Shown here one piece after another: positions 3,643 through 51,641 of a stretch of 64,000 nt of DNA. The translations under genes and the position numbers were made by a program. Location: the IMG/VR virus record IMGVR_UViG_2617271008_000003, positions 1 through 64,000 of that record, one strand, 5' to 3'. Numbering within the stretch: position 1 is the stretch's first letter; the number at the start of each line of letters is the position of its first letter. A model generated the notes under the pieces. The model saw nothing but the letters and a program-made list of their open reading frames with translations, made no database searches and had not been told where the DNA came from. This DNA comes from a virus.

Positions 3643-3688
3643 GGCGGTGGCCTCGTGAGCCAGCGGCACGACCAGATTGATATTTCGC

Positions 3689-4066
3689 TCAGTCATGGCG
3701 GCCTTGACCTTCATGAAGCGGGCGACGTTCTGTGGACTTCTTCCATCCATTGGCCTGTTTCCCGATACTCGTCGTCTGCTCGATCGCGCCAGCATAGGCC
3801 GCGCGCGCGATAAGACGCTTGTCCATGCCGAGGCGAAGCAACAGTTCTATCACTTGGAGGCGCTCAAGCAATTCGGCGAGATGCGGCGACTTGTCGGCCG
3901 CGACGTTCGCGCGGAACACCAGCACCATGATATCGATGCATTCGATCGTGATCTTCTCGCCGATGGTGCGCTTGAAGTCGCGAGGCATGTTCTTGACCAC
4001 GTCGGTGACAGTATCGAGCAGCGCATATGCCGCTCGATATATCGGCAGTTGGGTATGGATGGCCAC
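3689..4066 (-). CDS. avd: DGR accessory variability determinant (Avd-like four-helix-bundle protein)
   Basis: 125 aa basic helical protein lying between the target genes and the TR. Resembles the four-helix-bundle (TIGR02436/bAvd) family. Confidence 0.65.
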   Translation of the reverse strand: MAIHTQLPIYRAAYALLDTVTDVVKNMPRDFKRTIGEKITIECIDIMVLVFRANVAADKSPHLAELLERLQVIELLLRLGMDKRLIARAAYAGAIEQTTSIGKQANGWKKSTERRPLHEGQGRHD

Positions 4067-21650: not shown

Positions 21651-21678
21651 ATTTTCAGACAATCAAGCCACGCGCTAG

Positions 21679-22888
21679 GGAAACGCTGATTAATAGGCAA
21701 ACGCGCAAGCTTGTCGGCCGTGCTGACGCGCAAATTCCGGATGCCGAAGTGAATCGCAGCGAATTCGGGGAAGTTTGCCCCGGGAAAGCGCCTCATTTCC
21801 TGCATTTTTCATACACGTGACGGACTACTGCCATGAACCGAGCGCAACCGATTTCGCGCGATCACCAAGTTCGCCAAAGCGAACAGGCTGAACAGTTGCG
21901 CCGTGTTCTTCGCCAGTCCCTTGTAGCGCACCTTGCGATGACGGAACAGGTTCTTGACGACGTGAAACGGATGCTCGACCCGCGCGCGAATTTGTGCCTT
22001 GGTTCGCTCGAGCGCGATCACCAGATCCTTCAGTGCACCATCCTGCATCGCCTTGATCTTTCCTCGCTTGGCCGCCACGCGCCACTTCACCGACAGGTCC
22101 TTCATTTCATTGCGCTTGTCTACGCCGATGTAGCCCGCGTCGCCGAACGCTTCTTGCTCGTGACCATGCAACAGCGCGTGCGCTTGCGAAACATCCGACA
22201 CGTTGGCGGACGTGCCGACCACGCTGTGAACCAGCCCCGAATCGGCATCGACGCCGATGTGCGCCTTCATGCCGAAGTGCCACTCGTTGCCTTTCTTCGT
22301 TTGATGCATGTCCGGATCGCGACGCTTCTCGGCGTTCTTGGTCGACGACGGCGCTTCGATGATCGTCGCGTCGACCAGCGTGCCTTCCTTCATCATCAGC
22401 CCGCGTTCGCACAGCGAGGTGCCAATCTCGTCGAACAGTTTGCGCGTCAGGTCATGTTCAAGCAGCAGGCGCCGGAACTTCAGCAGCGTGGTCGCATCCG
22501 GCACGGTCTCGACGGCCAGATCTATCCCGGCGAAGGCTCGCATCGCGATGCTGTCGTACAGCGCATCCTCCAGCCCTTCGTCCGACAGGCTGTACCACTG
22601 CTGCAGGAAGTAGATTCGAAGCATCCGCTCCAGACCGATCGGCGGGCGGCCACGCTCGCCCTTCGGGTAGTACGGCTCGATTGCCATCAGCAACCGCGAC
22701 CACGGCACCAGCTTCTCCATCTCGTCCAGGAAACGCTGGCGCCGGGTCACGCGCTTCTTGCCCGCGCTTTCCGCTTCCGCAAAGCTCATTTGCCGTTTCA
22801 TCGTCGTGGATTCGTTCCGTGAACTGTCTTCTACAACGTCCTCGGCTACGTCAGCGATGACCGCCGAGCCGGATAAATCAGTGTTTCC
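21679..22888 (-). mobile_element. IS5-family insertion sequence (1210 bp) with CTAG target-site duplication
   Basis: Terminal inverted repeats GGAAACGCTGATTAATAGG (left) and GGAAACACTGATTTATCCGG (right, reverse complement). Flanked by 4-bp CTAG on both sides. Encodes a single DDE transposase. Confidence 0.8.
21809..22801 (-). CDS. IS5-family DDE transposase
   Basis: 330 aa. N-terminal MSFAEAE..RQRFLDEMEKLVPW and C-terminal ..HPFHVVKNLFRHRKVRYKGLAKN are typical of the IS5 family. Confidence 0.9.
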   Translation of the reverse strand: MKRQMSFAEAESAGKKRVTRRQRFLDEMEKLVPWSRLLMAIEPYYPKGERGRPPIGLERMLRIYFLQQWYSLSDEGLEDALYDSIAMRAFAGIDLAVETVPDATTLLKFRRLLLEHDLTRKLFDEIGTSLCERGLMMKEGTLVDATIIEAPSSTKNAEKRRDPDMHQTKKGNEWHFGMKAHIGVDADSGLVHSVVGTSANVSDVSQAHALLHGHEQEAFGDAGYIGVDKRNEMKDLSVKWRVAAKRGKIKAMQDGALKDLVIALERTKAQIRARVEHPFHVVKNLFRHRKVRYKGLAKNTAQLFSLFALANLVIARNRLRSVHGSSPSRV

Positions 22889-23039
22889 CTAGATGCATGA
22901 TGGACGCCGCATCCGGACGTCGTATCTGGCGTATCACCTTCCCTGATAGCCACACGAGATACATAGCATCGTCTCTCGATGGAGCAATTGGCGTCGCGTT
23001 TCGCTGCCGGCTGGCCCGGCTTACCGCTAGGAGCTACGT

Positions 23040-34149: not shown

Positions 34150-34936
34150 AAGGCGATTGAGCCTTGTATCTATTTTTCGGATAATCTCAAAGTATCCCAA
34201 AGGCCGATAAAGCGCGGATTTGGAATATTGCAGTATTCCGGCAGTAGGTTGGTGCCTAGCTCGGAGGTATCGCGCAAAGCGATTAGCCGAGACGCGGATC
34301 AGACATGAGTGCCGCGATCATGGAAAACCGTGTCAGCACGCGATTCCTGTTCTCCAATGAGACACCTCCAGGAAGGCGCGTAGAACATAGCGCGAGACCG
34401 ATGCAAATGGCGACGAGCCGAAAGGCATGCCCTGTCGACCGAAGGTGTTGGCGCGCAACCGTTCTTTGCCGACTGGCTCACGAGACGAGCCTTCTCCCAA
34501 AACCCGGAAACTGCTGGCGAGGCCAGTCGAACGCATCTATTGCGATGAACGGGTCGCCGGGTCTTGGGAGAGCGCAGTATGGCGTCCGGTGGGTGGTGCT
34601 CACCCTCATGCCGGAGCCGCGTATGGAGCCGCAATCCTTAACTGCGGTGACGGGCGGAGAAAATTAGCGTGCCGCCGGTTGGTCTCCGTTATCGGACCGT
34701 TTTCACGCATGCTTTCGTCTAGAGGCCTAGGACGGTGGGTCATGGCTAACGCCTACTCGCAAACTCTGGTTCGAATCCAGAAGGCAGCCGTGAGAGCGAA
34801 TCGCAGTTCGACGGGAGGAATCCCGCACGTTGCGATAGTGCAGGCTGATGCGCGCAAGATAGCCAGAGCCGGTTCGGTGCGGCCGAGGCGAAACCCCGAA
34901 AGCTGGAGATCAGCACCGGCCGCTCTCTCCATAGTT

Positions 34937-35012
34937 GCCGGTTTAGCTCATCAGGTAGAGCGACGGATTTGTAATCCGTAGGCGGTGGGTTCGAGCCCTA
35001 CAGCCGGCACCA
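34937..35012 (+). tRNA. tRNA-Thr (anticodon TGT)
   Basis: Folds as a canonical cloverleaf: 7-bp acceptor, D stem GCTC/GAGC, anticodon stem ACGGA/TCCGT with loop TTTGTAA, T loop TTCGAGC, CCA encoded. Confidence 0.85.
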
Positions 35013-35141
35013 GAATTTCCGGTCTGAACCCGGCGCGATCGGTGGAAAGCCGATCAAGGGGTAGCCCACTGTGCGGGCATCGATGGAAGTGGCGATGTTA
35101 AATGAGCCGCCCCCGGACGCGGCTACCACAACACCATATAC

Positions 35142-35234
35142 GGAAGAGTTAGCCGAATCGGCATAGCGGCAGCGGTCTTGAAAACCGAAGGCCCAGTAAT
35201 GGGTGTGTGAGTTCGAGTCTCACCTCTTCCGCCA
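35142..35234 (+). tRNA. tRNA-Ser (anticodon TGA), type II with long variable arm
   Basis: Perfect 7-bp acceptor GGAAGAG/CTCTTCC, T arm GTGAG-TTCGAGT-CTCAC, anticodon loop CTTGAAA, variable stem GCCCA/TGGGT, CCA encoded. The D arm is slightly irregular. Confidence 0.6.
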
Positions 35235-35239
35235 TCTAT

Positions 35240-35329
35240 GGAAGGTTGCCAGAGAGGCAATGGGTCGGCTTGCTAAGCCGTAGCCGATGCGTAAGCGTCG
35301 CGTGCGTTCGATCCGCACGCCTTCCGCCA
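35240..35329 (+). tRNA. tRNA-Ser (anticodon GCT), type II
   Basis: Acceptor GGAAGGT/GCCTTCC, D stem CCA/TGG, anticodon loop TTGCTAA, T arm GTGCG-TTCGATC-CGCAC, CCA encoded. Confidence 0.6.
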
Positions 35330-35382
35330 CTAAATCGGCCGCGCGATCAGGCGGCCGATGGGCCATAACTGGCAAGAACAAT

Positions 35383-35461
35383 TCCGCGAAATCCGAGCTT
35401 GGTGCACGGACCTGACTGTTAATCAGAGATTAGCTGAGTTCGATCCTCAGACGCGGAGCCA
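35383..35461 (+). tRNA. tRNA-Asn-like (anticodon GTT), possibly degenerate
   Basis: T arm CTGAG-TTCGATC-CTCAG, anticodon loop CTGTTAA, 6 of 7 acceptor pairs, CCA encoded. Overlaps and argues against ORF 35358-35639. Confidence 0.45.
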
Positions 35462-35684
35462 TTTACTAATCCGGATGGCGGCAGGAGCATGGGCGGTGCC
35501 CTTCCTGTTTGCCTGCCGGACCTTCACGCATGCGCTCTTATGCTTCTGCCCCGGCGGAGGCTTCAGTCGGCCGACAGAGAACGCAGTCGTGAAGGCAAAA
35601 CAGAATCGGCCGCGCACTGCGATGGCAGCCTACGGGTAAGTGGGCCGAGAGTTGAACCTTCTTCATTTCGCACAGGGAGCGAGC

Positions 35685-35870
35685 ATGCATTTGACATCTG
35701 ACGACAAAAGCAACGTTATCGGTCTAGCAGCCGCAGCAGCGGCCGAATGGGCCAAAGAAAACGTCAAACGTGGATCTATCGTTGATGGTCCGTCCGACAA
35801 AAGCATTGGGGAAAAGATTGGCGAGATTGTGGCCAACGCCGCCCTTAGCGCCGCGGAGCTGCTGAAGTAA
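35685..35870 (+). CDS. Hypothetical small protein
   Basis: 61 aa from the internal ATG. Alanine-rich. Confidence 0.3.
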   Translation: MHLTSDDKSNVIGLAAAAAAEWAKENVKRGSIVDGPSDKSIGEKIGEIVANAALSAAELLK

Positions 35871-35877
35871 TTCGAAT

Positions 35878-35953
35878 TGCGGGTGTAAGCCAACGGTAGA
35901 CAGCGAGGCTCATAACCTCGAAGCAGCCAGTTCGACTCTGGCCCCCGCAACCA
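35878..35953 (+). tRNA. tRNA-like sequence (anticodon CAT, Met/Ile-like) with defective D arm
   Basis: Good T arm GCCAG-TTCGACT-CTGGC, anticodon stem CGAGG/CCTCG with loop CTCATAA, acceptor 6 of 7 pairs, CCA encoded. The D stem does not pair. Confidence 0.3.
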
Positions 35954-37417: not shown

Positions 37418-37900
37418 ATGGCAACGCTCAAAGATGACGTGAAAGCGTTCATCGTTCGGGCGCTGGCGTGTTTCGATTCCCCCACCGATGTTTGTCGGCA
37501 AGTCAAAGAGGAATTCGGCATTGAAGTCACGCGCCAGCAAGTCTCGGCGTATGACCCGAATCGGCGTATCGCGAAGGATCTCAGCGACAAATGGCGACTA
37601 ATCTTCGAAGAGACCCGCAAGAAGTTTCTGGCCGACGTGTCGACCATTCCCATCGCTAGTCAGGCATTCCGTCTCCGCGCACTGAATCGGATGTATGAGC
37701 GTGTCCAAGGTCAGGGAAACATGGCGCTGGCCGCTCAATTGATTGAACAGGCCGCCAAAGAATCGGGTGGCGCATTCACCAATCGTCGGGAAATGACTGG
37801 CAAAGATGGTTCTCCTTTGATCCCGACGAATCCACAAGAAATGACCGATGAACAACTCGCTGCCATCGCCGCAACAGGCAGCGCGCGAGCTGCTGATTAG
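37418..37900 (+). CDS. Putative terminase small subunit (DUF2280-like)
   Basis: 160 aa protein immediately upstream of, and overlapping, the large terminase. N-terminal DNA-binding-like region. Confidence 0.45.
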   Translation: MATLKDDVKAFIVRALACFDSPTDVCRQVKEEFGIEVTRQQVSAYDPNRRIAKDLSDKWRLIFEETRKKFLADVSTIPIASQAFRLRALNRMYERVQGQGNMALAAQLIEQAAKESGGAFTNRREMTGKDGSPLIPTNPQEMTDEQLAAIAATGSARAAD

Positions 37901-39392
37901 GAGGAAGGCCCGGGATAGCGTTCTCGATTACGCGAACGCTATTGAAATCCCGGGTAAGCCTGCTGGCGAAGATCCGGATACGGAATTCTTCGAGCTTATC
38001 GAAACGACGATGGCTCAGCATCATCGCCTCATCCTTGAGACGATGGAGCGCATCAGCAAGACGCCGCACGGCCGGGCAATGTTCTTCATGCCGCCTGGCT
38101 CGGCTAAGAGCACGTATGCATCGGTTGTATTCCCTTCTCGTTACTTAGGAGCGGAGAAGAACCGCAAGGTCATTTTGGCCAGCTACGGCGATGACCTGGC
38201 GCGCAAGATGGGTCGCCGCACGCGGTCGATCATCAAGCAGAAGCGGTTCAAAGGAATTTTCGGCTGCGAACTGACTGCCGAATCGTCGGCGGCGCAAGAG
38301 TTTTCGCTGACTAACGGTAGTGAGTACATCGCGACCGGCATTCTCGGTGGCGTGACCGGCAACCGAGCGAACGGCATCATCATCGATGATCCGGTCAAGG
38401 GTCGCGAACAAGCCGACTCGCCGACGATTCGCGATAAGACGTGGGACGCCTATAACGACGATCTGAAGACTCGTCTTATCCCTGGCGGCTGGGTGGTCAT
38501 CATCCAGACGCGCTGGCATGAAGATGATCTTGCTGGCCGCATTTTGCCGGAAGACTGGAAAGGCGAGTCCGGGCCGATCCTCTGTCGCGACGGGAATGTC
38601 TGGGAGGTTGTGTGCCTCCAGGCCCGATGCGAGGTGCAGAACGATCCGCTCGGCCGGAAAATCGGCGAATACCTCTGGCCGCAATGGTTCAGCGAAAAAC
38701 ATTGGGCGCAGTTCGAGAGCAATGTCCGCACGTGGGCATCGCTCTATCAACAGTTGCCCAGGCCGCTCGAAGGAACGCTATTCAAGGTCGAAAACATGCT
38801 GGTCAATGGGGCACCGATCCCATGGCCGCAACGATGCGATTACGTCTTTGCCGTGATGGATTCCGCACTGAAAGCGGGAGACAAAAACGATGGCACAGGC
38901 GTGACCTACTTCGCCCGCAACAGACATATCGGTCACAAGCTGATCATACTCGATTGGGACATCACGCAGATTGAAAGCGATCTGATCGCCGAGTGGTTCC
39001 CCAATGTCATGTCGCGCGTGGAAGAGTTAGCGAGGCTTTGCGGGGCTCGCATGGGCAGCGCTGGCAGCTTCGTAGAGGATAAGGGCAGTGGTATCACCCT
39101 CCTTCAACGAGCTGCACGCAGCGGCTGGCCTGCGCAGGCGATCGACAGCAAATTGACCTCGATGAGCAAGGATGCTCGGGGCACTGGCGTTTCGGACTTT
39201 GTCCATTGCGGCGATGTGAAGATCAGCGAGCACGCATACAACAAGATCGTTGAATACAAAGGCCGCTCGCAAAACCATTTCCTGAGCCAATTCTTCGGGT
39301 ATCGGCTCGGCATTCCCAATCAGTCCGATGACCTGTACGACACGGGCGTCTACGGCATAGCAATTGGCCTCGGAGATAGCGACGGCCTCTGA
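37848..39392 (+). CDS. terL: Terminase large subunit
   Basis: 514 aa. ATPase P-loop FMPPGSAKSTYAS. C-terminal nuclease region with conserved acidic residues. Confidence 0.8.
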   Translation: MNNSLPSPQQAARELLIRRKARDSVLDYANAIEIPGKPAGEDPDTEFFELIETTMAQHHRLILETMERISKTPHGRAMFFMPPGSAKSTYASVVFPSRYLGAEKNRKVILASYGDDLARKMGRRTRSIIKQKRFKGIFGCELTAESSAAQEFSLTNGSEYIATGILGGVTGNRANGIIIDDPVKGREQADSPTIRDKTWDAYNDDLKTRLIPGGWVVIIQTRWHEDDLAGRILPEDWKGESGPILCRDGNVWEVVCLQARCEVQNDPLGRKIGEYLWPQWFSEKHWAQFESNVRTWASLYQQLPRPLEGTLFKVENMLVNGAPIPWPQRCDYVFAVMDSALKAGDKNDGTGVTYFARNRHIGHKLIILDWDITQIESDLIAEWFPNVMSRVEELARLCGARMGSAGSFVEDKGSGITLLQRAARSGWPAQAIDSKLTSMSKDARGTGVSDFVHCGDVKISEHAYNKIVEYKGRSQNHFLSQFFGYRLGIPNQSDDLYDTGVYGIAIGLGDSDGL

Positions 39393-39403
39393 TAAATACC
39401 CTC

Positions 39404-39586
39404 ATGGCAGAAATCACCATTTCCGGTTCGACGCTCTCATCGAGCCTGATGGATCTGCTCGGTGCCGATGACATCGTGCCAGGCTCGGAGCCGAGCTACC
39501 AGCTTTGCAAGACGATCTACGTGAGCCATCCGCTCGGCGGCAAGATCGTAGATCAACCGATCAAGCTGGCAATGAGCCAGAAGCGG
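39404..39586 (+). pseudogene. Portal protein gene, N-terminal fragment (interrupted by IS3-family element)
   Basis: 61 codons, then the IS insertion brings a stop 7 codons later. Same frame as the C-terminal part at 40790-42022. Confidence 0.6.
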
Positions 39587-39610
39587 GGTAGTCCCCCCAA
39601 GAATTAACGG

Positions 39611-39925
39611 GTGTTCAAGGTAGAATTTTCTAGCAGCAGGATCGACAGGAAATTTTGCATGAAGACGTCCAGATTCACGGAAAGCCAGATCATCGGGATT
39701 TTGAAACAGGCCGAAGCCGGAACACCCGTGCCGGAGTTGTGCCGCGAGCACGGGATGAGCAGCGCGAGCTTCTACAAATGGCGCTCGAAATACGGCGGCA
39801 TGGACGCGGCGCTGATGACCCGGATGAAGGAGCTTGAAGCGGAGAACGCGAGGCTCAAGAAGATGTACGCCGAAGAACGACTCAAGGCCGAAGTGGTGCG
39901 TGAGGCGCTCGAAAAAAAGTGGTGA
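39611..39925 (+). CDS. IS3-family transposase OrfA (HTH)
   Basis: [47 protein letters not shown] is a classic IS3 OrfA. Confidence 0.9.
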
Positions 39926-40746
39926 GGCCATCTCGTCGGCGCGAGATGGCCATGCGTGCTGTCAAGGATCGGGCGATGAGCGTACGGGCGGCCTGTGAGG
40001 CGTTTGGCGTGAGCGAGACCTGCTACCGCTACCAGGCAAAGCGCTGCCCGGAAAACGGGGTGATCGCCGAGTGGCTTGTGAAACTCACGCATAACCAGCG
40101 CAACTGGGGCTTTGGCCTATGCTTCCTGTACCTGCGCAACGTGAAGGGCTTCGTCTGGAATCACAAACGCGTTTACCGCATCTATCGCGAACTGGAACTG
40201 AATCTGCGGATCAAGCCACGCAAACGACTGATGCGTGAGCAACCGGAACCACTGGCCGTGCCGCAGGCACTGAACGAGTGCTGGTCAATGGATTTCATGC
40301 ACGATCAGCTTGCCGATGGGCGTAGCATCCGGCTGTTCAACGTGATTGACGACTTCAACCGGGAAGGCCTGTGCATCGAGGTGGACTTCTCGTTGCCGGC
40401 GCTACGTGTTATCCGGTCCCTGGATCAGGTGATCGAATGGCGCGGCAAGCCGCTGAAGATCCGCTGCGACAACGGACCGGAATATGTCAGCGATGCGCTC
40501 AGGGACTGGGCCGCTCGACGCGGCATCGTTCTGCAGTTTATCCAGCCCGGCAAGCCACAACAGAACGCGTACATCGAGCGTTACAACAAAACGGTTCGAT
40601 ACGACTGGCTCGCCCATTACCTCTTCGAGACCGTGGCCGACGTTCAGGAGTATGCGACGAAGTGGCTGTGGTCATACAATCACGAACGCCCGAACACGGC
40701 CATTGGCGGCGTACCGCCGAAACAGAAGTTGCTTATCGCGCCATAA
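39919..40746 (+). CDS. IS3-family transposase OrfB (DDE integrase core)
   Basis: DDE region ..[27 protein letters not shown]. Overlaps orfA in the -1 frame at the A6G motif. Confidence 0.9.
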
Positions 40747-40789
40747 CCTCTACTTCTGACCGCCGTTAAAAACGGGGGGACTACCGCGG

Positions 40790-42022
40790 AAGATCTCAAT
40801 TCCTGGCGGCCCGGAGGAACGCATCCGCGAAGCCTTCGAACGCAAGTGGAAGGAGATCAACGCCGATGCCTATATCGCCAACACATGGCGACTAGCGAAG
40901 ATTTACGGTGCTTCCGCGATCGTCTACGGCGCGAAGGATGTTGAAACCAATCAGCCGATTGCGCCCGAGGAACTGGCAAAGCTTCAGTTGTACTTCAACG
41001 CGCTTGATCCGCTGAACACGGCAGGCTCGCTGGTGCTGAACCAAGATCCGAACGCGCCCGACTTTCAGAAGCCGACCATCGTTACCGCTGCGGGCCAGAC
41101 ATATCACCCGTCGCGCTCTCTCGTGTTCTTCAACGAAGCCCCGCTATACATCGAGTACACCAACTCGGCATATGGCTACACGGGTCGCTCGGTCTATCAG
41201 CGCGCGCTTTACCCGCTGAAATCCTTCGTGCAAACGATGGTCGCGGACGATATGGTCTCGCGCAAGGCTGGCGTCATCGTAGCCAAGATGAAGCAGGCTG
41301 GGTCGATCGCCGATCGCGCGATGGCCGTGCTCCAGGGCATTAAGCGAAACGTCGTCAAGGAAGCGCAGACCAACAACGTCATCAACATCACGCCAGAAGA
41401 AGACATTGATACGCTGAACTTGATGAACGTTGACAAGGCGTTGGCCGGGTCGCGAAAAAACATTCTTGAGAACATCGCAGCGGCTGTCCCTCAGCCCGCC
41501 AAGCTGCTGAACTCGGAATCGTATGCCGAGGGGTTTGGCGAAGGCACTGAGGACGCGAAAGAAATCGTGCGCTACATCGAGCATGAGCGTCAGATGGTTC
41601 AACCGCTATACGAATTCTTCGACAACATCGTCATGCGCCTGGCATGGAACGAGGAATTCTTTGCCGCGCTCCAAACGGCTCTTCCTGAATACAAGAAGTT
41701 GACCTACAACGATGCGTTCTACCAATGGAAGAACGCATTCGTCGCCGAGTGGCCGTCGCTTCTCGTTGAGCCTGAGAGCGAGTTGGTCAAGGTCGATGAC
41801 GTCAAGCTCAAGGCACTCATTGCTGCGGTCGAAGTGCTGAATCCGAATCTCGATCCGGCCAATAAAGCGCATGTCATCCAGTGGTTCGAAGACAACCTCA
41901 ACGACATCAAGCATCTGTTCTCCAACCCGATGACTCTTGATTACGAGTCGTTGAAAGACTACGTGCCGCCTGAGTCCACTGGAGAACCAAGCGAGCCGGA
42001 ACCGTTCAATTCGAAAGTCTGA
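40790..42022 (+). pseudogene. Portal protein gene, C-terminal portion (open frame resumes immediately after the IS)
   Basis: The frame is open from the IS junction (KISIPGGPEERIRE...) into the ORF-track ORF 40988-42022. Followed by a MuF-like gene, as in Mu-like head modules. Confidence 0.6.
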
Positions 42023-42852
42023 TGGCTGAATCCTTCTACTCCGTCGTCACTGATGCGATCCGCGATTTCGAGGAAAACGGATTCGACAGCGCCGAGCGAT
42101 TGCAGTATTGGGTCGAGCGAATCCGATCGGCTGCCGTCGCTTCGATGACGCCTGAGAGTGTGCTCAACGAAACACTGACACGCACACTCCAAGGCGTCTA
42201 TAAGAAGATGATCGACGGAGGACAGATTATCCGCACGCATTCTGGTGTGTCGCGGTTCACGGTTGATCGCCTGAAGCCTCAGCTTCGCGCCGAGCTAGAC
42301 CGTCGCATGATGGTCTCACGCAGTCTCATCAAGCTCAATCGTGAGCAGATGGTCGAGAAGACTGTACAGCGTTTCGCCGGCTGGGCGTCATCGATACCTG
42401 CCGGCGGCAGCCGGGCGATCGAGGTCAAGGAGGTGAAAGACAACCTCCGTAAAGCGCTCACTTCCCTGCCCTTCGAAGAGCGTCGCGTTCACATTGACCA
42501 AACCGCGAAATTCACTGCGGCCCTTAACGAAATCGTCGCCGTTGATAGTGGCGCGATCGCTGTGCAATGGAACATTCGACATTCAGCCGGCTATCACAAT
42601 CGTCCCGACCACAAAGAGCGCGAAGGGAAAATATATCTGCTTCGTTCAAGCTGGGCCAAGGATAAAGGGCTCGTGAAGCCAGGGCCTGCCGGCTACTACG
42701 ACGACGTTACCAGCTTCGGCGAAGAAGTCTTTTGCTCGTGCTTTGGCCGCTGGTTGTATTCCCTGCGCGACTTGCCCCCTGAAATGTTGACCCAAGCCGG
42801 TGAGAAAGCGCTGGCCGAGGCAAAAGCGAAGATCAAAGCGATGAGAGCATGA
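42022..42852 (+). CDS. Phage head morphogenesis protein (Mu F / SPP1 gp7 family)
   Basis: 276 aa directly after the portal, ATGA-coupled. Central ..[21 protein letters not shown].. region typical of MuF-like proteins. Confidence 0.55.
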
Positions 42853-42853
42853 C

Positions 42854-44767
42854 ATGCCATTAGAGAAAGGATCGTCCAATGCGACGGTCGGACACAACAT
42901 CGCAGAGCTGCGCAAAGCGGGCCACCCCGAAGACCAAAGCATCGCAATCGCAATGCGCGAAGCAGGTCGCAGCAAGGCGGATTCCGACAAGGTGAAAGCA
43001 GCCGGCGTGCTGATCGTCGCGGATGGCAATGTGCTGTTCCTGCGGCGCGGAAGCCGTGGCGATCATCCTGGCGAGTGGGCGTTTGCAGGTGGCCACATTG
43101 AGGACGGCGAGACGCCTGAAGAAGCCGCCCGGCGCGAGACGCAAGAAGAAACCGGATACGAGCCGCACAAGCTGATCGAGCTTGGCAAGTCGGATGATGG
43201 CGCAGTCGAATTCACGACGTTCTACAACGAGTCGCGACCTTTCGATGTCGCGCTGAGCGACGAGAGCACCGAATTCCTTTGGTCCCCGCTCGGATCGTGG
43301 CCCGAACCGTTGCATTCGGGATGTCGATTTGTACTGGAGTCCGATGCATTCAAGGCGGTCCGCAAAGCCCACATGACGGAGACGGACCTCGCGCGAGCGA
43401 TGGTCGCAGGCGAATATTCGTCGCCACAGTTCTTCCGGAACATGTGGCTTTTCGATATCCGCATCACCGGTACTGGCACTTCGTATCGATCCAAGGATAA
43501 CGAATACGTATATCGGCCTCCTGAGAATTATCTCAACGATGACTTCCTCGCTCGATGCAGTGGGCTTCCTGTAATCATTGACCATCCCGAGAAAGCAACA
43601 CTTGATTCGAAGGAGTTCGATGATCGTGTGGTAGGCACCGTACTTCTTCCCTATATCAAAGGGGATGAAGTGTGGGCCATATCTCGCATTTACGACAAGG
43701 CAACCGCGACTCTCATGTCGCAAGAACAGCTTTCCACGTCGCCATCCGTCGTATTCCGAAATCCAGATGTAGAAAACGCCACCGTGACCCTCGACGGTGG
43801 CCAAAAGCTGTTGATCGAGGGAAATCCAATCCTGCTCGACCATATCGCTATTTGCGAAGTCGGCGTGTGGGACAAGGGCAGATCGCCATATGGCGTATCC
43901 ACCACCAACGTTCAGGAACCTGAAATGACTGAAGAAGAGCGTAAGGCCAAGGCGGACGCCGAGGCGAAGGAAGAACTCGAAGCGCGCGCGAAGGCTGACG
44001 CTGAGGCCAAGGCGAAGGCTGACGCCGAAGAAGAAAAGGCGAAGGCTGATGCAGAAAAGTGGGACAAGCTGATGTCCGCAGTCGATTCGCTGAAGGCCGA
44101 TATGTGCGCCCGCATGGACGCGCTGGAAGGCAAGAAGGACGATGCTATGCCGGCCGATGAGCTGGCAGTTGACAAGGCTAAGGCCGATTCGGAAGCCGAA
44201 GAAAAGGCCGCCAAAGAGAAGGAAGCCGAGGCGGCCAAACTGAAGGCCGAAGCCAAGGAAGAAGAAGCCAAAGCAGATGCTGCCGCGCGTGAAAGCGCTC
44301 TGCTCGACCGCGTTGCTCAGCTCGAAAAGATGCTGGTTCAAACCGCTCAGCTCACGCCGAAGCCCCTGAGCGATGCAGACCATGCGGCATTCGCAGACGT
44401 GCAAGCCAAGGCCGATAGCATCTATTCGGCGTTCGGCAAGCAGGCATCGCGCGCGCTCAACGGCGAAGACGTGCTCGCCTATCGCAAGCGCCTCGCCGCT
44501 CCGATGAAGTCGCACAGCGCCGCATGGAAAGACGTCGACCTGTCGAAGCTCGATGCATCGGTGTTCGAAATCGCTGAAGCCGCGATTTACGCAGATGCGA
44601 TGGATGCTGCTATCCGACCGGTTGGTGCTGCCGAAGGTGGCCTGCGCGCCGTGACCAAGGATACCGGCACGGGCCATCGCGTCACGACCTTCTACGGCAA
44701 GCCGAGCGACTGGATGGACGACTTCCGGGCGCCGCGCATGAAAGCGCAACTTCGCCGAAGCCACTAA
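42854..44767 (+). CDS. NUDIX hydrolase domain fused to phage scaffold/prohead-like protein with Lys/Ala/Glu-rich coiled coil
   Basis: Nudix box [23 protein letters not shown] near the N-terminus. Long [23 protein letters not shown] low-complexity coiled coil in the C-terminal third. Position between MuF and capsid. Confidence 0.6.
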
Positions 44768-44833
44768 GGCTAGTAGTCGCAAACACGAGGGCCGCCACTG
44801 CGCGGGCCTTTCTCATTTCTGGATAGGAAAATC

Positions 44834-45721
44834 ATGGCATTGAATACGCCTTTCTACCCGTACGCGACTACGAACGCCGCAGGCTCGTTCTCCGTACAGA
44901 GCGCTGGTTATGTGCAGGGTGTCTACCAAGACGAACCCGCGATCCGATACTCGCTGGCGTCCGGTACGCTGTCGCCCAACGCAACCGGCCCGATCTGGGG
45001 CGGCATGGCGATCTCGGAAAGCATTGCTCCCGCGAGCAATTACGATCGCACGCTGGGCGGAACGATTGTCCCCGCAACGGCAGTCTCGAACATCACCGGT
45101 TTCTCGGTCTTCAACAACGCCTATTCGATGGTGGGCTCGCCCTCCAGCCCGGTTCCCCTCGCCGGCAATGCTGGTGCGTCAGTCGCGTTCTTCCGTCTGG
45201 GCTGCGGCATCCGCATTCCGGTCGCAATGGACCCGTCGCTCGTGTCGCTCGATGGCAGCCTGATCACGACTCAGGTTTCGTGGGACTTCAACAACCAGGT
45301 GCTCCAGCCCTACGATGCTTCGACTCCGACGTATTCGATCACATCGCAAACGGCGACCTTCTCGAATGGCGTGTGGACCGTTGTTGTCGTGATGGCCGCG
45401 GCGTCGCCGGTCGGCGGTGTTGGCGACCTGATCAACATCAGCGGCGCAACGAATAGCGGCACGGGCGGCAATTCGCTCGTCAACGGCAATCAGACCGTTA
45501 CCGCTTTCATCGACAACCAGCATTTCAGCTATCAAGTTGTCGCCCCGGCCGGCGCAATCGGCACGATCGCCGGCACGCAAGTGCTGAACTATGGCACGGG
45601 CGCGCTACCGGTGAAGATCCTCGACATCAATGCCGGCAACAGCATGACCGTCGTCTACAACCCCACTACCGGTGCAGCTACCTGGAATCGCCAGGGTTAC
45701 GCGGCCCTCATCCAGATCTAA
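44834..45721 (+). CDS. Phage head structural protein (capsid or decoration candidate)
   Basis: 295 aa Gly/Ser/Thr-rich beta-type protein between the scaffold and the putative major capsid. Preceded by a hairpin. Confidence 0.4.
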   Translation: MALNTPFYPYATTNAAGSFSVQSAGYVQGVYQDEPAIRYSLASGTLSPNATGPIWGGMAISESIAPASNYDRTLGGTIVPATAVSNITGFSVFNNAYSMVGSPSSPVPLAGNAGASVAFFRLGCGIRIPVAMDPSLVSLDGSLITTQVSWDFNNQVLQPYDASTPTYSITSQTATFSNGVWTVVVVMAAASPVGGVGDLINISGATNSGTGGNSLVNGNQTVTAFIDNQHFSYQVVAPAGAIGTIAGTQVLNYGTGALPVKILDINAGNSMTVVYNPTTGAATWNRQGYAALIQI

Positions 45722-45730
45722 GGACAGAAC

Positions 45731-46750
45731 ATGGCCAATATCGTAGCTGCACAGATCCGGGTCAATCCTCATTATGAGATCCCGGAAATCCTCCTGCCGT
45801 ATCAACAAGCGTCGGGTGCGTTCGACCTGATCGCGACGGGCGATCCGCTCGTTCGTCTTGGCGAAGGCGATCTCGCTGTCTACATGAAGCGGATGGACGT
45901 TCGCACCGAGGTTGCGACCAGCCAATTCGCTCCGAACCAACTGCCGAGCTGCACGGTCGTCTACAGTGAAATCAGCACGCCGACGTATCTGATCCAGTCG
46001 CGCGCCGAGTACGATCACCACGACACCGCCGCTCTTGGTCGCGTCGGTGCATCCACGGTGGAAGCCCATCGCCTCGCAATGCGTCAGGGCACGTTCCAGC
46101 AACAACGGAACCTGCTCCTGTATGGCGCAAATCCGGCGAACGGCGAAGGGCTGCTGAATACGCCGGGAGCAACGGCTCTCAACCTGCCTCCCGATTCGAA
46201 CGGCAATACAACCGTCGTCACATATGACAACGGCCAGTTCGCGCTCTTCCTTTCGCAGACCATCGGCGCGATCAAGTTCCGCACGAATCAAATGGGCATG
46301 GCGGCGAAGTTCTCGATCACCACGACTCAGCGCGTGCTCGAAAACATCAGCTACAACGTCGTTCAGCTCACGCAGTTCCAACGCACCGGCGCCGGTACGG
46401 ATTCGGGCCGCGGTCTGGTGGATGCCGTGCTCGAAAGTAACGAGGACGAAATCACCTGGTCGTGCGACGACACGCTGATCGGCAAGGGTGCGGGTGGTAC
46501 CGATCTGATCATCATCTCCATGCCGGAAGTGAAGAAGCCGAAGGGCGGCAAGATCAATACCAACGCGTTCGCCGAGCTCACTCCGGGCTCGGCCGCGTGT
46601 GCGCTTCAACTGGTCGACCGTGCGGCACCCACCGAGATCATGGCGCCGCTTCCCCGTGGTGCCGTCGATGTGGTGTCCGAACTGCGCAGCACGTCGGGTT
46701 GGTCGGTCCGTCCGGAAGCACTCACGCTTCTGAGCGTTCAGTACCAGTAA
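45731..46750 (+). CDS. Putative major capsid protein
   Basis: 339 aa. Position after the scaffold, followed by a large stem-loop terminator. Abundant-protein codon usage. Family assignment not certain. Confidence 0.45.
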   Translation: MANIVAAQIRVNPHYEIPEILLPYQQASGAFDLIATGDPLVRLGEGDLAVYMKRMDVRTEVATSQFAPNQLPSCTVVYSEISTPTYLIQSRAEYDHHDTAALGRVGASTVEAHRLAMRQGTFQQQRNLLLYGANPANGEGLLNTPGATALNLPPDSNGNTTVVTYDNGQFALFLSQTIGAIKFRTNQMGMAAKFSITTTQRVLENISYNVVQLTQFQRTGAGTDSGRGLVDAVLESNEDEITWSCDDTLIGKGAGGTDLIIISMPEVKKPKGGKINTNAFAELTPGSAACALQLVDRAAPTEIMAPLPRGAVDVVSELRSTSGWSVRPEALTLLSVQYQ

Positions 46751-46847
46751 TGGTTAGCCCCGCAGATAGGTTGCGCAACTGACAAGCACGCCCCCTGTCG
46801 TGTTTCTGCGGGCTTCTTACACAGGGTTAAATCTCACAGGGAAAACC

Positions 46848-47363
46848 ATGTCACTTTTCATCGCAAATTGCAGCAAGCAGAATTTTGAGATTCATTACTG
46901 GGTCGAGGGTTCTCCGAACAAGCCAGTCGTCACCAAGATCAGGCCTGGCGCACAAGAGAACATCTATCCACAAGGCAATCGCGTTGACCATCAGCGCATC
47001 ATTGACCAGCATCGTCCATACGGTTTGATTCCTGTATCCGAGATCGACCGTCACGATGGTTTCGTCGGTCAGTGCTACCAGTTCGACACGCCCATTCCGC
47101 TCGACCGTCTTCAATCGACGATGAAGCGCAACGACGAAGACCTTTACGCTGAAGCGCAAGAACGACGGAAAGAAGCCGCTGCGGCCACCGACGATACCGT
47201 TCGCCGTGCCGCCCAAGAGTCGGAAATGAAGGTCGGCAACTTCGAGGTCGAGATCACGGAAGTGGAGCAGAAGGGCGTCGATCAGACAGTCCACGAAGTC
47301 ATCACCGTGACCGCGGATGCTCCGCAAGAAACCCGTCGTCGCGGCCGTCCTCGTAAGAGCTAA
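46848..47363 (+). CDS. Hypothetical virion protein with C-terminal AT-hook-like RRRGRPRKS
   Basis: Internal ATG start with SD. The basic tail suggests DNA binding. Confidence 0.4.
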   Translation: MSLFIANCSKQNFEIHYWVEGSPNKPVVTKIRPGAQENIYPQGNRVDHQRIIDQHRPYGLIPVSEIDRHDGFVGQCYQFDTPIPLDRLQSTMKRNDEDLYAEAQERRKEAAAATDDTVRRAAQESEMKVGNFEVEITEVEQKGVDQTVHEVITVTADAPQETRRRGRPRKS

Positions 47364-47366
47364 TCC

Positions 47367-47870
47367 ATGTGCACTCCCTGCTTTCCTCCGCTCCCTGGCA
47401 TGGGAGTGCTTGCTCCATGGCAGACGCAAACGGCACCCAATGCGACGGACCTGTACACGTTCCTGACGACGGTTGCTGGCGTCCCCACTGCCGCGTTGCC
47501 CGAGAACAGCCCGTACCTAACATGGGCACTGAGCTACGCAGAAGAAAAAACGCTTCTGGTTCTGTATGCGATCGGCCAGGACTACTACTGTTTCGCCGTC
47601 TACTGCCTTGCTACATCGTTTCTGCTGAATTGGTGTCCCGATCAACAGGGACAGACCTTCTTTACTACCGCGCGATCCGACATGAAGCTCAACAGCTTCG
47701 TGCCGGGCGTGGTCAATTCTGCGGCCGATCAGGGCACGTCCGATTCGTTGCTGTCGCCCGATTTCTTGAAAGGCCTAACCCTCGGGCAGTTGCAGGCGTT
47801 AAAAGACCCGTATGGGCGAGCTTGGCTAGCCGCTCAACAGGACCTCGGCGCCATATGGGGTATTAGTTGA
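47367..47870 (+). CDS. Hypothetical head-tail joining protein
   Basis: 167 aa in the neck-gene position. Confidence 0.35.
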   Translation: MCTPCFPPLPGMGVLAPWQTQTAPNATDLYTFLTTVAGVPTAALPENSPYLTWALSYAEEKTLLVLYAIGQDYYCFAVYCLATSFLLNWCPDQQGQTFFTTARSDMKLNSFVPGVVNSAADQGTSDSLLSPDFLKGLTLGQLQALKDPYGRAWLAAQQDLGAIWGIS

Positions 47871-47878
47871 GGTAAAAA

Positions 47879-48439
47879 ATGGCTGCGAAAGATCTTCCCA
47901 TGCCTATGGCGGAAGGCGGCGGAAGCTATTCTCCCGTCCATGTAGGCACAGCAAGCACTTCCCCCAGTCGCATCACGCTTCACCTAGGCGTGATTGATTT
48001 GCCCTATGTCGAACAGGAAAGTAAGGGCAAAAGCAAAAAGAAGCAGAAGAAAAGCGCAGTCACGAAGACCACTGGCGAAGTCGCCAAAATCCTCGAAGAA
48101 AAATATGGCGTCCTCGATACATTCGCTTTTGCGCGTCTCCCCGACATCGCTAAGGCGCTTGAGGAATCCATCGCCGGACAACTCGAAAACATGTTGATGG
48201 GCGGCCGTCCTTCAGGCAATCCGTTCGCGAGCGCCGAATCGTCGATCACGACGATGATGAAGAACTTCATCTCGTCTCAGCAGATTGAGCACATGGGCAT
48301 TGAAGGCGTCCCGACTCAGGCCGCTTTGAACGGCGTCAACCATCGCCTGAAGCATCCGTATGCGAAGGGCAATCCTCGTCGCCCATCGTTCATTGACACA
48401 TCGCTTTACTGGTCTACGCTAACCGCATGGGTTGATTAA
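47879..48439 (+). CDS. Hypothetical virion protein
   Basis: 186 aa with a KGKSKKKQKK basic patch. Confidence 0.35.
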   Translation: MAAKDLPMPMAEGGGSYSPVHVGTASTSPSRITLHLGVIDLPYVEQESKGKSKKKQKKSAVTKTTGEVAKILEEKYGVLDTFAFARLPDIAKALEESIAGQLENMLMGGRPSGNPFASAESSITTMMKNFISSQQIEHMGIEGVPTQAALNGVNHRLKHPYAKGNPRRPSFIDTSLYWSTLTAWVD

Positions 48440-49389
48440 TGCCATCTATTGCTGAATCGCTAGGCACGCAAAGCCAACTGGCGAGCACACTCGCGGCCGG
48501 CGTTGACCAGATTTCGCAAAGCCAGGAAATCACCTTCACGAGGTATAGCCAGTCGGTCTTAGCTTCTGACGGATATGTGTTCTGGGTGAATACCGGCCAA
48601 ACGCAAACGGTCAAGGGCTCGTTACATCAGGTGACCGATCAACAGCAGAACGAAGACGAAACGATTGATATCAATCGCATCATCTTCACGGCCTTGGACC
48701 CGATTGACGACTTCAACACGGTGGCACCCACCGACTTGTTCATAGGCGAGATCGACGGCATCAAGTTCTCGTTCAATGCGCGGGGCTCGCTGTACAGGCA
48801 GGCCAATTTGTATCACTACGTTGGCAATGCGGTCTATCCGGCGCTTGCATCGCAGTTGATCGATAGCGCTGCCGACTTGCCTGCCGGGCCGATCGTCTCA
48901 AACAGCTTGCCAATCTGGCTGGCACAAAGCACGCCGCAGCTTCCCATCTACCCATCGTATTTGGTCCCGGCCAATGTTGTGCCTCCCTATGTGGTCGCAC
49001 ATATAGAGCCGGATGCGACGGAAGCGCCCTCGTTCCCGGACTACGTTTGGCCTGGAACAGTTGTGCCGAATTCGGGTGGTTCCCCGCTACACAACCTCCC
49101 AAGCTCTCAGCTCGCGAAAGACAGAGTTCGTCTGACGATGTATGGCTTAAACAACCAACAGGCCATCCAGTTCTACGCGTCCCTGATCGATTACTCGCTG
49201 AACACCGACAACTTCGGATTCGGCAATTCGCCAGCAATCAAGGACGCGAAGCGCACGCAATCCGAACTCAACGTGATTGCGATGAAAAAGACGCTCGACA
49301 TTGATGCTTGGTATTTCCAGACCACTTCTGACGCGATCGCGCGCCGGCTGATTCTTGAGGCCGGCTTCAGTTCTATCACCACCAGCTAG
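48439..49389 (+). CDS. Hypothetical virion protein
   Basis: 316 aa, ATGA-coupled, followed by a strong intrinsic terminator. Confidence 0.4.
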   Translation: MPSIAESLGTQSQLASTLAAGVDQISQSQEITFTRYSQSVLASDGYVFWVNTGQTQTVKGSLHQVTDQQQNEDETIDINRIIFTALDPIDDFNTVAPTDLFIGEIDGIKFSFNARGSLYRQANLYHYVGNAVYPALASQLIDSAADLPAGPIVSNSLPIWLAQSTPQLPIYPSYLVPANVVPPYVVAHIEPDATEAPSFPDYVWPGTVVPNSGGSPLHNLPSSQLAKDRVRLTMYGLNNQQAIQFYASLIDYSLNTDNFGFGNSPAIKDAKRTQSELNVIAMKKTLDIDAWYFQTTSDAIARRLILEAGFSSITTS

Positions 49390-49412
49390 ACCGGGGCATC
49401 CCGACTGGCAAA

Positions 49413-49440
49413 CATTGCCCGCCTTGAGCGGGCTTTTTTC
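49413..49440 (+). terminator. Rho-independent terminator GCCCGC-CTTGA-GCGGGC-TTTTTTC
   Basis: Perfect 6-bp GC stem followed by a T6 run. Confidence 0.6.
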
Positions 49441-49454
49441 ATTCTGGAGTAGAA

Positions 49455-49838
49455 ATGCCCCAAGGTCCGCTTCAAGCAAACGTAGCAGTCAATAGCACCG
49501 TAACGCCGAAAACATCGGCTCCCCTTCAACTGGATGCCAGCGGCAATCTGCTCGTCGGCGTGGGGTCAACCAACAAACTCAACGTCTCGACGATCACTGC
49601 GGTTAAGGCTGCGCCCGGACGTGTTTGCAAGGTCACGGTTATTACTGCTGCGACGGCAGGCAATTTCGCGGTCTATGACGTCGCCACGACGGGCGCTGCC
49701 GCAACTGCCAACGCAATCATCAAATACACCGCCTCGTGGCCGGCTGTCGGCACGGTCATTTCTCTGGATTTCCCTTGCCTTGCTGGGATCGTTGTTGATC
49801 CGGGCACGAGTGGCGTCGTCGCTGTCTCGTTCGACTAA
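49455..49838 (+). CDS. Hypothetical tail-associated protein
   Basis: 127 aa Ala/Thr/Val-rich protein. Confidence 0.35.
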   Translation: MPQGPLQANVAVNSTVTPKTSAPLQLDASGNLLVGVGSTNKLNVSTITAVKAAPGRVCKVTVITAATAGNFAVYDVATTGAAATANAIIKYTASWPAVGTVISLDFPCLAGIVVDPGTSGVVAVSFD

Positions 49839-49856
49839 TAACCGGAGCACGCCCAC

Positions 49857-51179
49857 ATGGCGACCACGATCACGCCCACAATCGTAACGGTCAATACGAC
49901 CGTTACGCGCGCGCCGACTGTCTCGCAGCTTCAGCAAAGTGGCGCGATTGTGTCGGCGGGCGGCACCACTCTGACCGCAGGCACATATCAGTATTGCGGC
50001 ACTCTTTCGGCGGTCACGTCGATTCTCGCGACTCCGCTTGCACTGTCCGGCCTCGTATGGTCGAACGGTGTTGTAACTGCCACTACGTCGGCTGCGCTTT
50101 CCCTGTCTACGGGTCAGACATTCACCACGACCATCGCTGGTGCGACGCCGGCAGGTTACAACGGCACGTTCACGGCCACGGTGACTGGTACGAGCACGTT
50201 CACCTATGCGCTCGCCACGAATCCAGGTAGCGAGACCGTACCGGGCACGTATCTGCCGTCCAATGCTGGGTTCGTCAATAACGCAGCCACAACGTTCTTC
50301 GCACAAGGCACATCGGTTGGTGTGTATGTGCTCGAACTTGGATCGGTAACGACTGCGGCGGCCGGCATTACAGCGCTTCAGACGTGGATCACTGCGAACA
50401 GCAATCCGCAAGTGTTCTATGCGTACCTGCTACCCGCTTCATGGGACGCTGCGTCTTCCGTGGCGCTGAACACGATGACGGCGAACTACGAAAGCCCAAG
50501 CGGGCAGACGTATTTCTTCATCACGACGACCGTTTCGAACCTCCCGAATTACGCATCAAACAAGGCTGTCTACGCTCAGGTTCCGAGCCCGACCAAGGCA
50601 TCAACGGAGCATCAGCTCGCGGCTGATTTCTATCAGTGGCTCGTGAACAATCCGGGTTCTGCGAATCCGTTGGCCCCGATGTCGTTTCGCTTTGTCTTCG
50701 GAGTTACGCCGTGGTCTTCGGTGAATAACCAGACCAACATCAACACGACGCTTACTAACTTCGGCAACCTGATTTCCACCGGTGCAGAAGGCGGCATATC
50801 CACTGCGTGCATTTTCAAAGGCACGACGATGGACGGCGAGCAAGCGGCATGGTGGTACGGCGTCGATTGGTTCCGTATCCAGGTCAAGCAAGCGCTGGCC
50901 AATGCCATCATCAACGGCTCGAACAGCAATCCCCCGCTGCTTTATAACCAAGCGGGCATCAACACGCTGCAAGCCATTGCGCAGAACGTCGGTAACTCCG
51001 CCGTTGTGTTCGGCTGCGCATTGAGTGTCGTCGTGAATGCGGTTCCCTTTGCGACCTACACGCAGCAAAACCCGAACGACTACAACAACGGTATCTACAA
51101 CGGTCTTTCGGCAACGCTGGTCGGTCAAAACGCCTTCCTGTCGATCACCTTCAACCTCGACGCTGTTCAGTTTGCTTGA
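49857..51179 (+). CDS. Putative tail sheath protein
   Basis: 440 aa, directly followed by a tube-sized gene, chaperone pair and tape measure (Mu/P2-like order). Confidence 0.5.
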   Translation: MATTITPTIVTVNTTVTRAPTVSQLQQSGAIVSAGGTTLTAGTYQYCGTLSAVTSILATPLALSGLVWSNGVVTATTSAALSLSTGQTFTTTIAGATPAGYNGTFTATVTGTSTFTYALATNPGSETVPGTYLPSNAGFVNNAATTFFAQGTSVGVYVLELGSVTTAAAGITALQTWITANSNPQVFYAYLLPASWDAASSVALNTMTANYESPSGQTYFFITTTVSNLPNYASNKAVYAQVPSPTKASTEHQLAADFYQWLVNNPGSANPLAPMSFRFVFGVTPWSSVNNQTNINTTLTNFGNLISTGAEGGISTACIFKGTTMDGEQAAWWYGVDWFRIQVKQALANAIINGSNSNPPLLYNQAGINTLQAIAQNVGNSAVVFGCALSVVVNAVPFATYTQQNPNDYNNGIYNGLSATLVGQNAFLSITFNLDAVQFA

Positions 51180-51197
51180 TGATAGGAGAAAACGAAA

Positions 51198-51641
51198 ATG
51201 CCTAATCCCTATCTGAACGCAGGACCGCTGAACCGCGTCCGATGCCATGTCGTGGTTGCTTCATATCCGACGTTGAACGTCACGGCTCAGAACATGGGCA
51301 AGTCGTTCGCACGGATCGAATTCGAAGGCGACTTCACGCAACAAATCGAAACCGCAACCGGTGTCGTGAATTCGCCCGAGCCATATGTTATGGCGACGGT
51401 CAATATCGGTTTGCTGCGGCCGCAGCCGCTTTCTGCTGCATGGCTTGCCCAAGCTCAGGATACAAGCGTCCTCGGTGACGTGACGATCTACAGCGACACG
51501 TCATCGTTTCCGGCGATCCAGCTCAACGACACCAGCATTCGAATGCTTGATCCGGGCGCATACGATGGAACCGACCCTGTGACGCGCCTGGTGTTGCGAG
51601 GGACATTCAACATCAACAATTCGCTCTGGTCGTTCACGTAA
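51198..51641 (+). CDS. Putative tail tube protein
   Basis: 147 aa between the sheath and the chaperones. Confidence 0.45.
   Translation: MPNPYLNAGPLNRVRCHVVVASYPTLNVTAQNMGKSFARIEFEGDFTQQIETATGVVNSPEPYVMATVNIGLLRPQPLSAAWLAQAQDTSVLGDVTIYSDTSSFPAIQLNDTSIRMLDPGAYDGTDPVTRLVLRGTFNINNSLWSFT

Follow-up and report, generated by a model that had tools for sequence, protein, structure and literature searches.

The portal gene of a prophage of Burkholderia gladioli is split by an element that is, judging by its sequence, an intact IS3-family insertion sequence (IS). The reading proposed here, to which a probability of about 0.93 can be given, is that a recent, simple and strain-specific transposition of this element knocked out the portal of the prophage. 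In the proposed course of events, an intact and probably active IS, native to the replicons of B. gladioli, would have landed just past codon 61 in the portal gene, which belongs to an integrated prophage of the myovirus type. This insertion would have cut the portal to a peptide of 67 amino acids (aa) and left the remaining 410 codons without a usable start. With no portal vertex, the prophage alone would neither package its DNA nor yield infectious particles. For reversion, the IS would have to be deleted precisely together with one of its two flanking GCGG copies; such a deletion does not correspond to any step of the copy-out-paste-in transposition of IS3-family elements, which proceeds via a circular intermediate, and, without an excision enhancer of the IEE type, would probably be very rare. 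Globally, the event is an ordinary and well-resolved inactivation of a prophage structural gene by an IS.

The analysis concerns a window of 64,000 nucleotides, that is, the whole stretch of DNA analysed (positions 1 to 64,000 of the IMG/VR record IMGVR_UViG_2617271008_000003). The window begins with the start codon (ATG) of a tyrosine integrase gene, is phage-like throughout and is 100% identical to scaffold KN150850.1 of the B. gladioli assembly GCA_000756855.1. The insertion is regarded as strain-specific because the exact 67-aa chimeric product that it generates is recorded from this assembly only. A search of the literature on B. gladioli prophages carrying IS insertions returned nothing specific to the portal locus.

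The insertion sequence and its ends

The initial annotation had described the portal gene as split by an IS3-family element of 1199 bp flanked by a GCGG duplication. The element and its flanks comprise the following features.

39583..39586, no strand: left target-site duplication GCGG, directly abutting the IS and present as a single GCGG at empty sites
39587..40785, + strand: IS3-family insertion sequence of 1199 bp, whose transposase genes are co-oriented with the portal gene and the late operon
39587..39598, no strand: left terminal inverted repeat GGTAGTCCCCCC, matching the reverse complement of the right end at 12 of 12 bases
39659..39925, + strand: orfA (88 aa), the helix-turn-helix (HTH) DNA-binding part of the transposase (PF01527 HTH_Tnp_1, E 1.9e-23)
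39913..39919, + strand: A_AAA_AAG slippery heptamer, in the correct phase with orfA, predicted to direct -1 programmed frameshifting
39919..40746, + strand: orfB, which encodes the catalytic (DDE) part of the enzyme and is shifted by -1 with respect to the frame of orfA (PF00665 rve, E 6.4e-22; PF13683 rve_3, E 2.4e-20)
39922..39955, + strand: stem-loop (-22.7 kcal/mol) located 3 nt past the slippery site, a likely stimulator of frameshifting
40774..40785, no strand: right terminal inverted repeat GGGGGGACTACC, the perfect 12-bp partner of the left end
40786..40789, no strand: right target-site duplication GCGG, directly abutting the IS

The stem-loop has as its core a perfect inverted repeat of 10 bp (39926-39935 / 39942-39951). 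As computed from the sequence, the -1 fusion of orfA and orfB (OrfAB) is one open frame of 362 aa, and RefSeq displays one CDS over the same extent in identical copies of the IS. OrfAB reaches 279.3 bits on the NCBIfam profile NF033516 (IS3 family transposase), for a cut-off of 160, whereas its next-best profile, that of IS481, gives 144 bits and stays below its cut-off of 224. The fusion carries a catalytic triad of the DD(35)E type, made of D212, D271 and E307, with spacings of 59 and 36 and an arginine at +7. The family assignment of the initial annotation is thus upheld by NF033516. The inverted repeats at the ends and the 4-bp duplication also agree with the family, in which target duplications are short (3-5 bp).

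Termini of IS3-family elements are usually TG...CA, a feature that is typical rather than defining. The termini found here, which read GG...CC in each of the four copies analysed from B. gladioli, deviate from this usual pattern, which is not considered as a ground for excluding the element from the family. Furthermore, the length of 1199 bp, the 4-bp duplication and the layout of the open reading frames (ORFs) fit the features described for the IS407 group, which includes IS407 and the Paracoccus elements ISPam3 and ISPbe1 (1197-1198 bp) (PMC3281130). The element, a putative member, shares with them a size of about 1.2 kb, two ORFs that overlap and are joined by a -1 shift at A_AAA_AAG, HTH and DDE (rve) domains, short inverted repeats and a 4-bp direct repeat. 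A literature search for an ISfinder-style name (ISBgl or ISBugl) yielded nothing useful.

The ends of the IS are fixed by its inverted repeats, by the duplication and by plasmid copies. Indeed, megablast against plasmids identified full-length copies of the 1199-bp IS on five B. gladioli plasmids, with 99.7-100% identity, the copy carried by NZ_CP022209.1 being 100% identical over positions 1-1199. The three plasmid copies that were fetched (100%, 99.8% and 99.7% identity) start and stop at the same bases as the IS of the portal gene, and each is flanked by its own 4-bp duplication (GAAC, CGAG and ACGC), so that, with the portal site, four independent insertions show a duplication of 4 bp. Since these three copies share the exact ends, the delimitation of the IS is independent of how the portal gene is read. 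Therefore, the IS plus one GCGG does amount to 1203 bp, as first proposed, and an error of the boundaries by a non-multiple of three, which the initial annotation had considered, can be discarded. A Paraburkholderia copy that is only 92% identical displays the same ends, without a clean duplication; no further copy was found within the 64-kb window. Because the IS is 100% identical to a plasmid copy, without any decay, it is probably still active in B. gladioli.

The portal gene and its intact orthologues

The two fragments of the gene, and the genes that surround them, are located as follows.

37418-37900, + strand: gene of a DUF2280 protein (PF10045), full length relative to the orthologous prophage L011; a small-terminase role is suggested by its position
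37848-39392, + strand: large terminase gene (PF03237; PHROG 38 terminase large subunit, E 4.5e-76), full length relative to L011
39404..39586, + strand: N-terminal fragment of the portal gene, codons 1-61, 100% identical to residues 1-61 of an intact orthologue
40790..42022, + strand: C-terminal fragment of the portal gene, codons 62-471 and stop, 99.3% identical to residues 61-471 of the orthologue, without gaps
42022..51641, + strand: downstream genes of the virion head and tail, among them those for head morphogenesis, NUDIX/DUF2213, major capsid and tail sheath, assigned by PHROG and all full length

The insertion point lies between codons 61 and 62, and the two pieces of the portal gene share one frame of the window. 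Joining 39404-39586 to 40790-42022, which removes 1203 bp, gives an open frame of 1416 nt encoding 471 aa, followed by a stop; the prediction that precise excision would restore a portal of about 470 aa is therefore confirmed.

According to profiles, gene order and a modelled fold, the split gene is a phage portal gene. This identity rests on four lines, i.e., PF06381, PHROG 146, gene order and the fold of an AF2 model. The restored protein matches PF06381 (Phage_portal_3) over residues 37-344 with 70.5 bits, for a cut-off of 33.8, and PHROG 146 (portal protein) with an E-value of 3.3e-57. The genes follow the order DUF2280, TerL, portal, head morphogenesis, NUDIX/DUF2213, major capsid and tail sheath, the DUF2280 and large terminase genes being both intact and located directly upstream of the portal gene. 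As a sequence search against solved structures gave only a marginal match (the Pam3 portal, E 0.39), a fold search was needed. The model, of moderate confidence (pLDDT 66, pTM 0.62), was built on P0001, an intact orthologue that is 99% identical to the restored protein. When it was compared with the PDB by Foldseek, the best 50 of 212 matches were all portal, neck or connector entries, the top matches being the portal of Pam3 (E 4.1e-10), then E217, T1 and Pa193, although sequence identity to solved portals is low (11-19%). The restored protein thus shares with the PF06381 / PHROG 146 portals a profile match above the cut-off, a portal fold in the model and the location of its gene beside that of the large terminase. 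The PF06381 family was formerly known as DUF1073.

At NCBI, the name given to this portal family is 'anti-CBASS protein Acb1 family protein'. Acb1 is a small cyclic-nucleotide phosphodiesterase, whereas the protein encoded here would have 471 aa and gave, among the best 50 of 212 structural matches to its modelled orthologue, nothing but portals and their neck or connector counterparts. The fold and gene-order evidence thus favours a portal over the Acb1 name.

A database search retrieved 2985 relatives of the restored protein, and all of the 120 listed span 93-100% of it as one chain. Among these listed matches, the closest intact orthologues all have 471 aa. They are P0001, from the Logan assembly of run SRR28754068, which differs from the restored portal by three residues (E113D, V159I and S171T), P0149, from B. 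gladioli GCA_902832345.1, which differs by two, and P0148, from B. glumae. No close relative was found in the phage database, where the best match is that of the Shewanella phage vB_Sb_QDWS, with 50.6% protein identity. The restored portal gene displays 52-54 nucleotide differences from its relatives, yet only 2-3 conservative residue changes, which indicates that the divergence accumulated under purifying selection. Additional lesions of the portal, a possibility raised by the initial annotation, were sought by comparison with the intact orthologues and none was detected; nothing in the sequence suggests that the portal has decayed since the insertion.

The comparison with uninterrupted orthologous prophages that the initial annotation had advised shows intact 471-aa portals and a single GCGG. 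In L011, L012-L014 and L016, the empty site reads ...ATGAGCCAGAAGCGGAAGATCTC... with one GCGG, and the restored junction expected after precise excision of the IS is ...CAGAAGCGGAAGATC... On either side of the IS, the DNA of L011 and L016 aligns with the window at 94-97% identity, and the alignments of the left and right flanks have exactly GCGG in common. Furthermore, a tblastn search with all the L011 gene products of the interval that opens with the DUF2280 gene and includes the structural genes (37418-51641 of the window) gave end-to-end matches; the downstream gene products are 89.5-100% identical to those of L011, with gaps confined to the NUDIX/DUF2213 gene. An apparent truncation of an upstream gene (34427-34837) was rejected, as it corresponds to a difference in gene calling, the 184-aa version being also called in L017.

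These data bear on the hypothesis that an assembler misplaced a repeated IS into the portal gene. The IS is indeed multi-copy in the replicons of B. gladioli, where it occupies up to 3-4 places per plasmid, and repeats are a classic source of misjoins. However, a misjoin would not yield a perfect 4-bp duplication of bases that are single at the empty site, and both flanks are colinear with an orthologous prophage over more than 10 kb, which leaves next to no probability for an artefact.

Consequences of the insertion for the prophage

The transposition proposed here would deprive the prophage of its portal. The N-terminal ORF extends into the IS as far as the TAA located at 39605-39607, only 6 codons past the left end, and encodes a 67-aa product made of the 61 native residues and GSPPKN. 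Thirteen more in-frame stops follow within the IS, i.e., 14 in total, which rules out any read-through or fusion across the element. On the other side, the initial annotation had noticed that the C-terminal part is open from the first base after the right GCGG; it is indeed open there, but this frame reopens as early as 40760, 26 nt inside the IS.

It may be asked whether the portal remains functional, made in two polypeptides or as a protein shortened at its N-terminus whose expression an outward promoter of the IS would drive. The C-terminal frame, open from 40760, would allow such a product, RefSeq models a protein of 407 aa starting at 40799, and elements of the IS407 group can possess promoters directed outward, from which genes located downstream are expressed (PMC3281130). 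However, a start-codon scan of the C-terminal fragment found no in-frame ATG, GTG or TTG before the TTG located at 40988 (residue 128), at which no Shine-Dalgarno sequence was found at normal spacing, and the RefSeq model needs an ATT as start. An independent start of the C-terminal fragment is therefore ruled out. A promoter scan of 39300-41100 gave one promoter-like site, on the minus strand and at chance level. Furthermore, the 61 residues that would be lost include 14 columns that are invariant in 36 homologues (among them P26, G27, H42-G45, S58, Q59 and R61), and the listed homologues are, without exception, single chains that cover nearly the whole portal. A portal that would still be functional appears exceedingly improbable.

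Emphasis had also been placed by the initial annotation on the preservation of the reading frame across the insertion. This weight is not warranted. The observation is uninformative because precise excision restores any gene whatever the length of the insert, because 1199 + 4 gives 1203 at every insertion of this IS, and because no translation crosses the element. A multiple of three has a 1-in-3 expectation and is here a fixed property of the element, not of its insertion in the portal gene. The divisibility of 1203 bp by three has no biological consequence.

Phage portals are dodecameric rings set in a single vertex of the capsid. Without a portal, a tailed phage can neither initiate the assembly of its procapsid nor dock its terminase. 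Since the portal vertex cannot be built, the prophage alone should not package DNA or make infectious particles, and the packaging defect anticipated by the initial annotation thus agrees with the established role of the portal. Another prophage of the same genome might conceivably complement the defect in trans; such rescue of defective prophages is documented in E. coli O157 Sakai, and the same source describes the disruption by an IS of nu1, the small-terminase gene of prophage Sp4 of E. coli O157 (PMC2669165).

The knockout of the portal would account for the reason why this prophage of B. gladioli should be non-productive, which is relevant to phage induction from the strain and to the scoring of prophage 'intactness'. 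It has little significance beyond the strain concerned. It also reveals annotation flaws. The fragments of the portal are deposited as separate proteins, one of 67 aa (the hypothetical protein KGC14621.1 in GenBank) and another of 407 aa (RefSeq, from the ATT at 40799) or 344 aa (GenBank, from the TTG at 40988); one of these fragments is named 'anti-CBASS protein Acb1 family protein', and there is no flag identifying the gene as a pseudogene disrupted by an IS.

Reversion of the insertion and the second insertion sequence

The initial annotation had added that the prophage could in principle revert. This holds in principle but is overstated, as the donor copy is retained in copy-out-paste-in transposition and frequent excision is documented only with IEE. 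Indeed, reviewed data indicate that IS3-family elements transpose by copy-out-paste-in, the donor copy staying in place, and that high-frequency precise excision of such an element is documented only in the presence of both IEE and an active transposase (bioRxiv 10.1101/2023.06.07.543989). The documented case comes from a prophage of E. coli O157:H7, where the precise excision of IS1203v/IS629 out of stx2 requires an active OrfAB and IEE, a PrimPol-type protein (bioRxiv 10.1101/2023.06.07.543989; PMC9943667). In E. coli K-12, which is devoid of IEE, precise excision is about 10^5-fold lower than in O157:H7 (bioRxiv 10.1101/2023.06.07.543989).

The prophage studied here resembles stx2::IS1203v in that an IS3-family element inactivates a prophage gene that precise excision can restore. 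The two systems differ in the host, the type of phage and the gene hit, and it is for O157:H7 that the presence of IEE is known and excision was measured.

From this precedent, the insertion could be viewed as a reversible switch, the IS excising precisely at an appreciable frequency, for example on induction, so that the prophage would be only conditionally defective. The duplication is perfect, the restored portal is intact and the transposase looks functional from its sequence. In addition, the IS points in the same direction as the late operon, and a scan of 39300-41100 found no intrinsic terminator, so that late transcription could raise the amount of OrfAB. A precedent is the stx2 system, where IS1203v/IS629 leaves the gene when OrfAB is abundant and IEE present (bioRxiv 10.1101/2023.06.07.543989; PMC9943667). 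However, the retention of the donor copy and the need for IEE stand against such a switch, and no IEE-like (PrimPol-helicase) protein was found among the larger proteins of the 64-kb window that were scanned. Slippage would have at its disposal only a 4-bp direct repeat and the 12-bp inverted repeat, and with a direct repeat of only 4 bp its spontaneous occurrence should be very rare. Moreover, the prophage carries a second IS elsewhere, and therefore repair of the portal alone might not restore a wild-type phage. A switch of this kind is judged very unlikely. If excision did prove frequent, the prophage would add a further example to the IS-mediated reversible inactivation already known from stx2::IS1203v.

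A self-repair coupled to induction, in which read-through would raise OrfAB and an IEE-like host factor would allow precise excision, restoring the portal in a fraction of the cells, seems highly improbable. If it did take place, the IS would act as a conditional brake on virion production instead of a dead end. The preferred reading, which no feature of the sequence contradicts, is still that of a simple transposition that knocked out the portal.

The second IS, which belongs to the IS5 family and is unrelated to the first one, lies in the early region of this prophage; it was absent from the initial annotation. It can be described as follows.

21679..22888, - strand: IS5-family insertion sequence of 1210 bp with an inverted repeat, splitting a 60-aa ORF that starts at 21647

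Its transposase scores 359 bits on NF033581 (IS5 family transposase), for a cut-off of 140, and it is flanked by a CTAG duplication (21675-21678 and 22889-22892). At the corresponding empty site of B. gladioli GCA_902832345.1 (L019), CTAG is single and the 60-codon frame is open.

Disrupted portal gene and its public annotation

The IS3-family element that splits the portal gene (39404-42022) carries GG...CC termini (window 39587-39588 and 40784-40785), and these termini are found in all B. gladioli copies, whereas the usual termini of IS3-family elements are TG...CA. In the public annotation, the two portal pieces (39404-39607 and 40799-42022) are entered as two separate proteins and are not assigned to a single IS-disrupted pseudogene. 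The upstream fragment is annotated as a 67-aa hypothetical protein and the downstream one as an 'anti-CBASS protein Acb1 family protein' of 407 aa, a length that requires an ATT start; in GenBank, the downstream fragment is 344 aa long. Both the portal fold and the gene order established for the disrupted gene are at odds with the Acb1 family name.

Module boundary and head genes

The region extending from the portal to the tail is 97% identical between the window and two related B. gladioli prophages (L016 and L017). The terminase pair of these prophages, a Sf6-type small subunit and a 425-aa large subunit, is unlike that of the window. Homology restarts 8 nt 5' of the portal ATG (window 39396), which places a module swap between these prophages and the window exactly at the terminase/portal boundary.

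Head-module gene of the window
42854-44767, + strand: head-module protein of 637 aa, NUDIX and DUF2213

In this protein, an N-terminal NUDIX hydrolase domain is fused with a DUF2213 region, which gives weak PHROG matches to head maturation protease and is followed by an Ala/Glu/Lys-rich tail. The NUDIX-DUF2213 fusion is kept in every related prophage examined. In one related prophage from a metagenome assembly (L012, 11416-13200), the portal-adjacent head-morphogenesis gene encodes 594 aa versus 276 aa. An intein appears to be inserted in this structural gene, because the 594-aa product bears an intein-splicing domain.

Other elements and composition of the prophage

Additional features of the window
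2353-3795, - strand: reverse transcriptase, 480 aa (PADLOC RT, 120 bits)
21675-22892, including the CTAG duplication: second insertion sequence of this prophage (1210 bp, IS5 family)
34937-35953: four clustered tRNA genes (Thr-TGT, Ser-TGA, Ser-GCT, Met-CAT)

The tRNA cluster lies within the prophage, 5' of the packaging genes, and the right end of the prophage is outside the window, past 64000. G+C content is 50-62% throughout positions 1-64000, apparently below the roughly 68% of B. gladioli chromosomes; this lower value would fit with the entire window consisting of phage DNA acquired by horizontal transfer.

The IS5-family element has imperfect terminal repeats of roughly 17 bp and a CTAG target duplication. 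It interrupts a 60-codon ORF (start 21647) coupled with both of its neighbours through ATGA overlaps. The site is empty in B. gladioli GCA_902832345.1.

The reverse transcriptase gene is about 1.1 kb away from the integrase gene (1-1269). The sole match of its product is the generic PADLOC model, and its scores on the group II intron, retron and DRT families of NCBIfam are well under the respective cut-offs. It may be a defence reverse transcriptase of unassigned class carried by the prophage.
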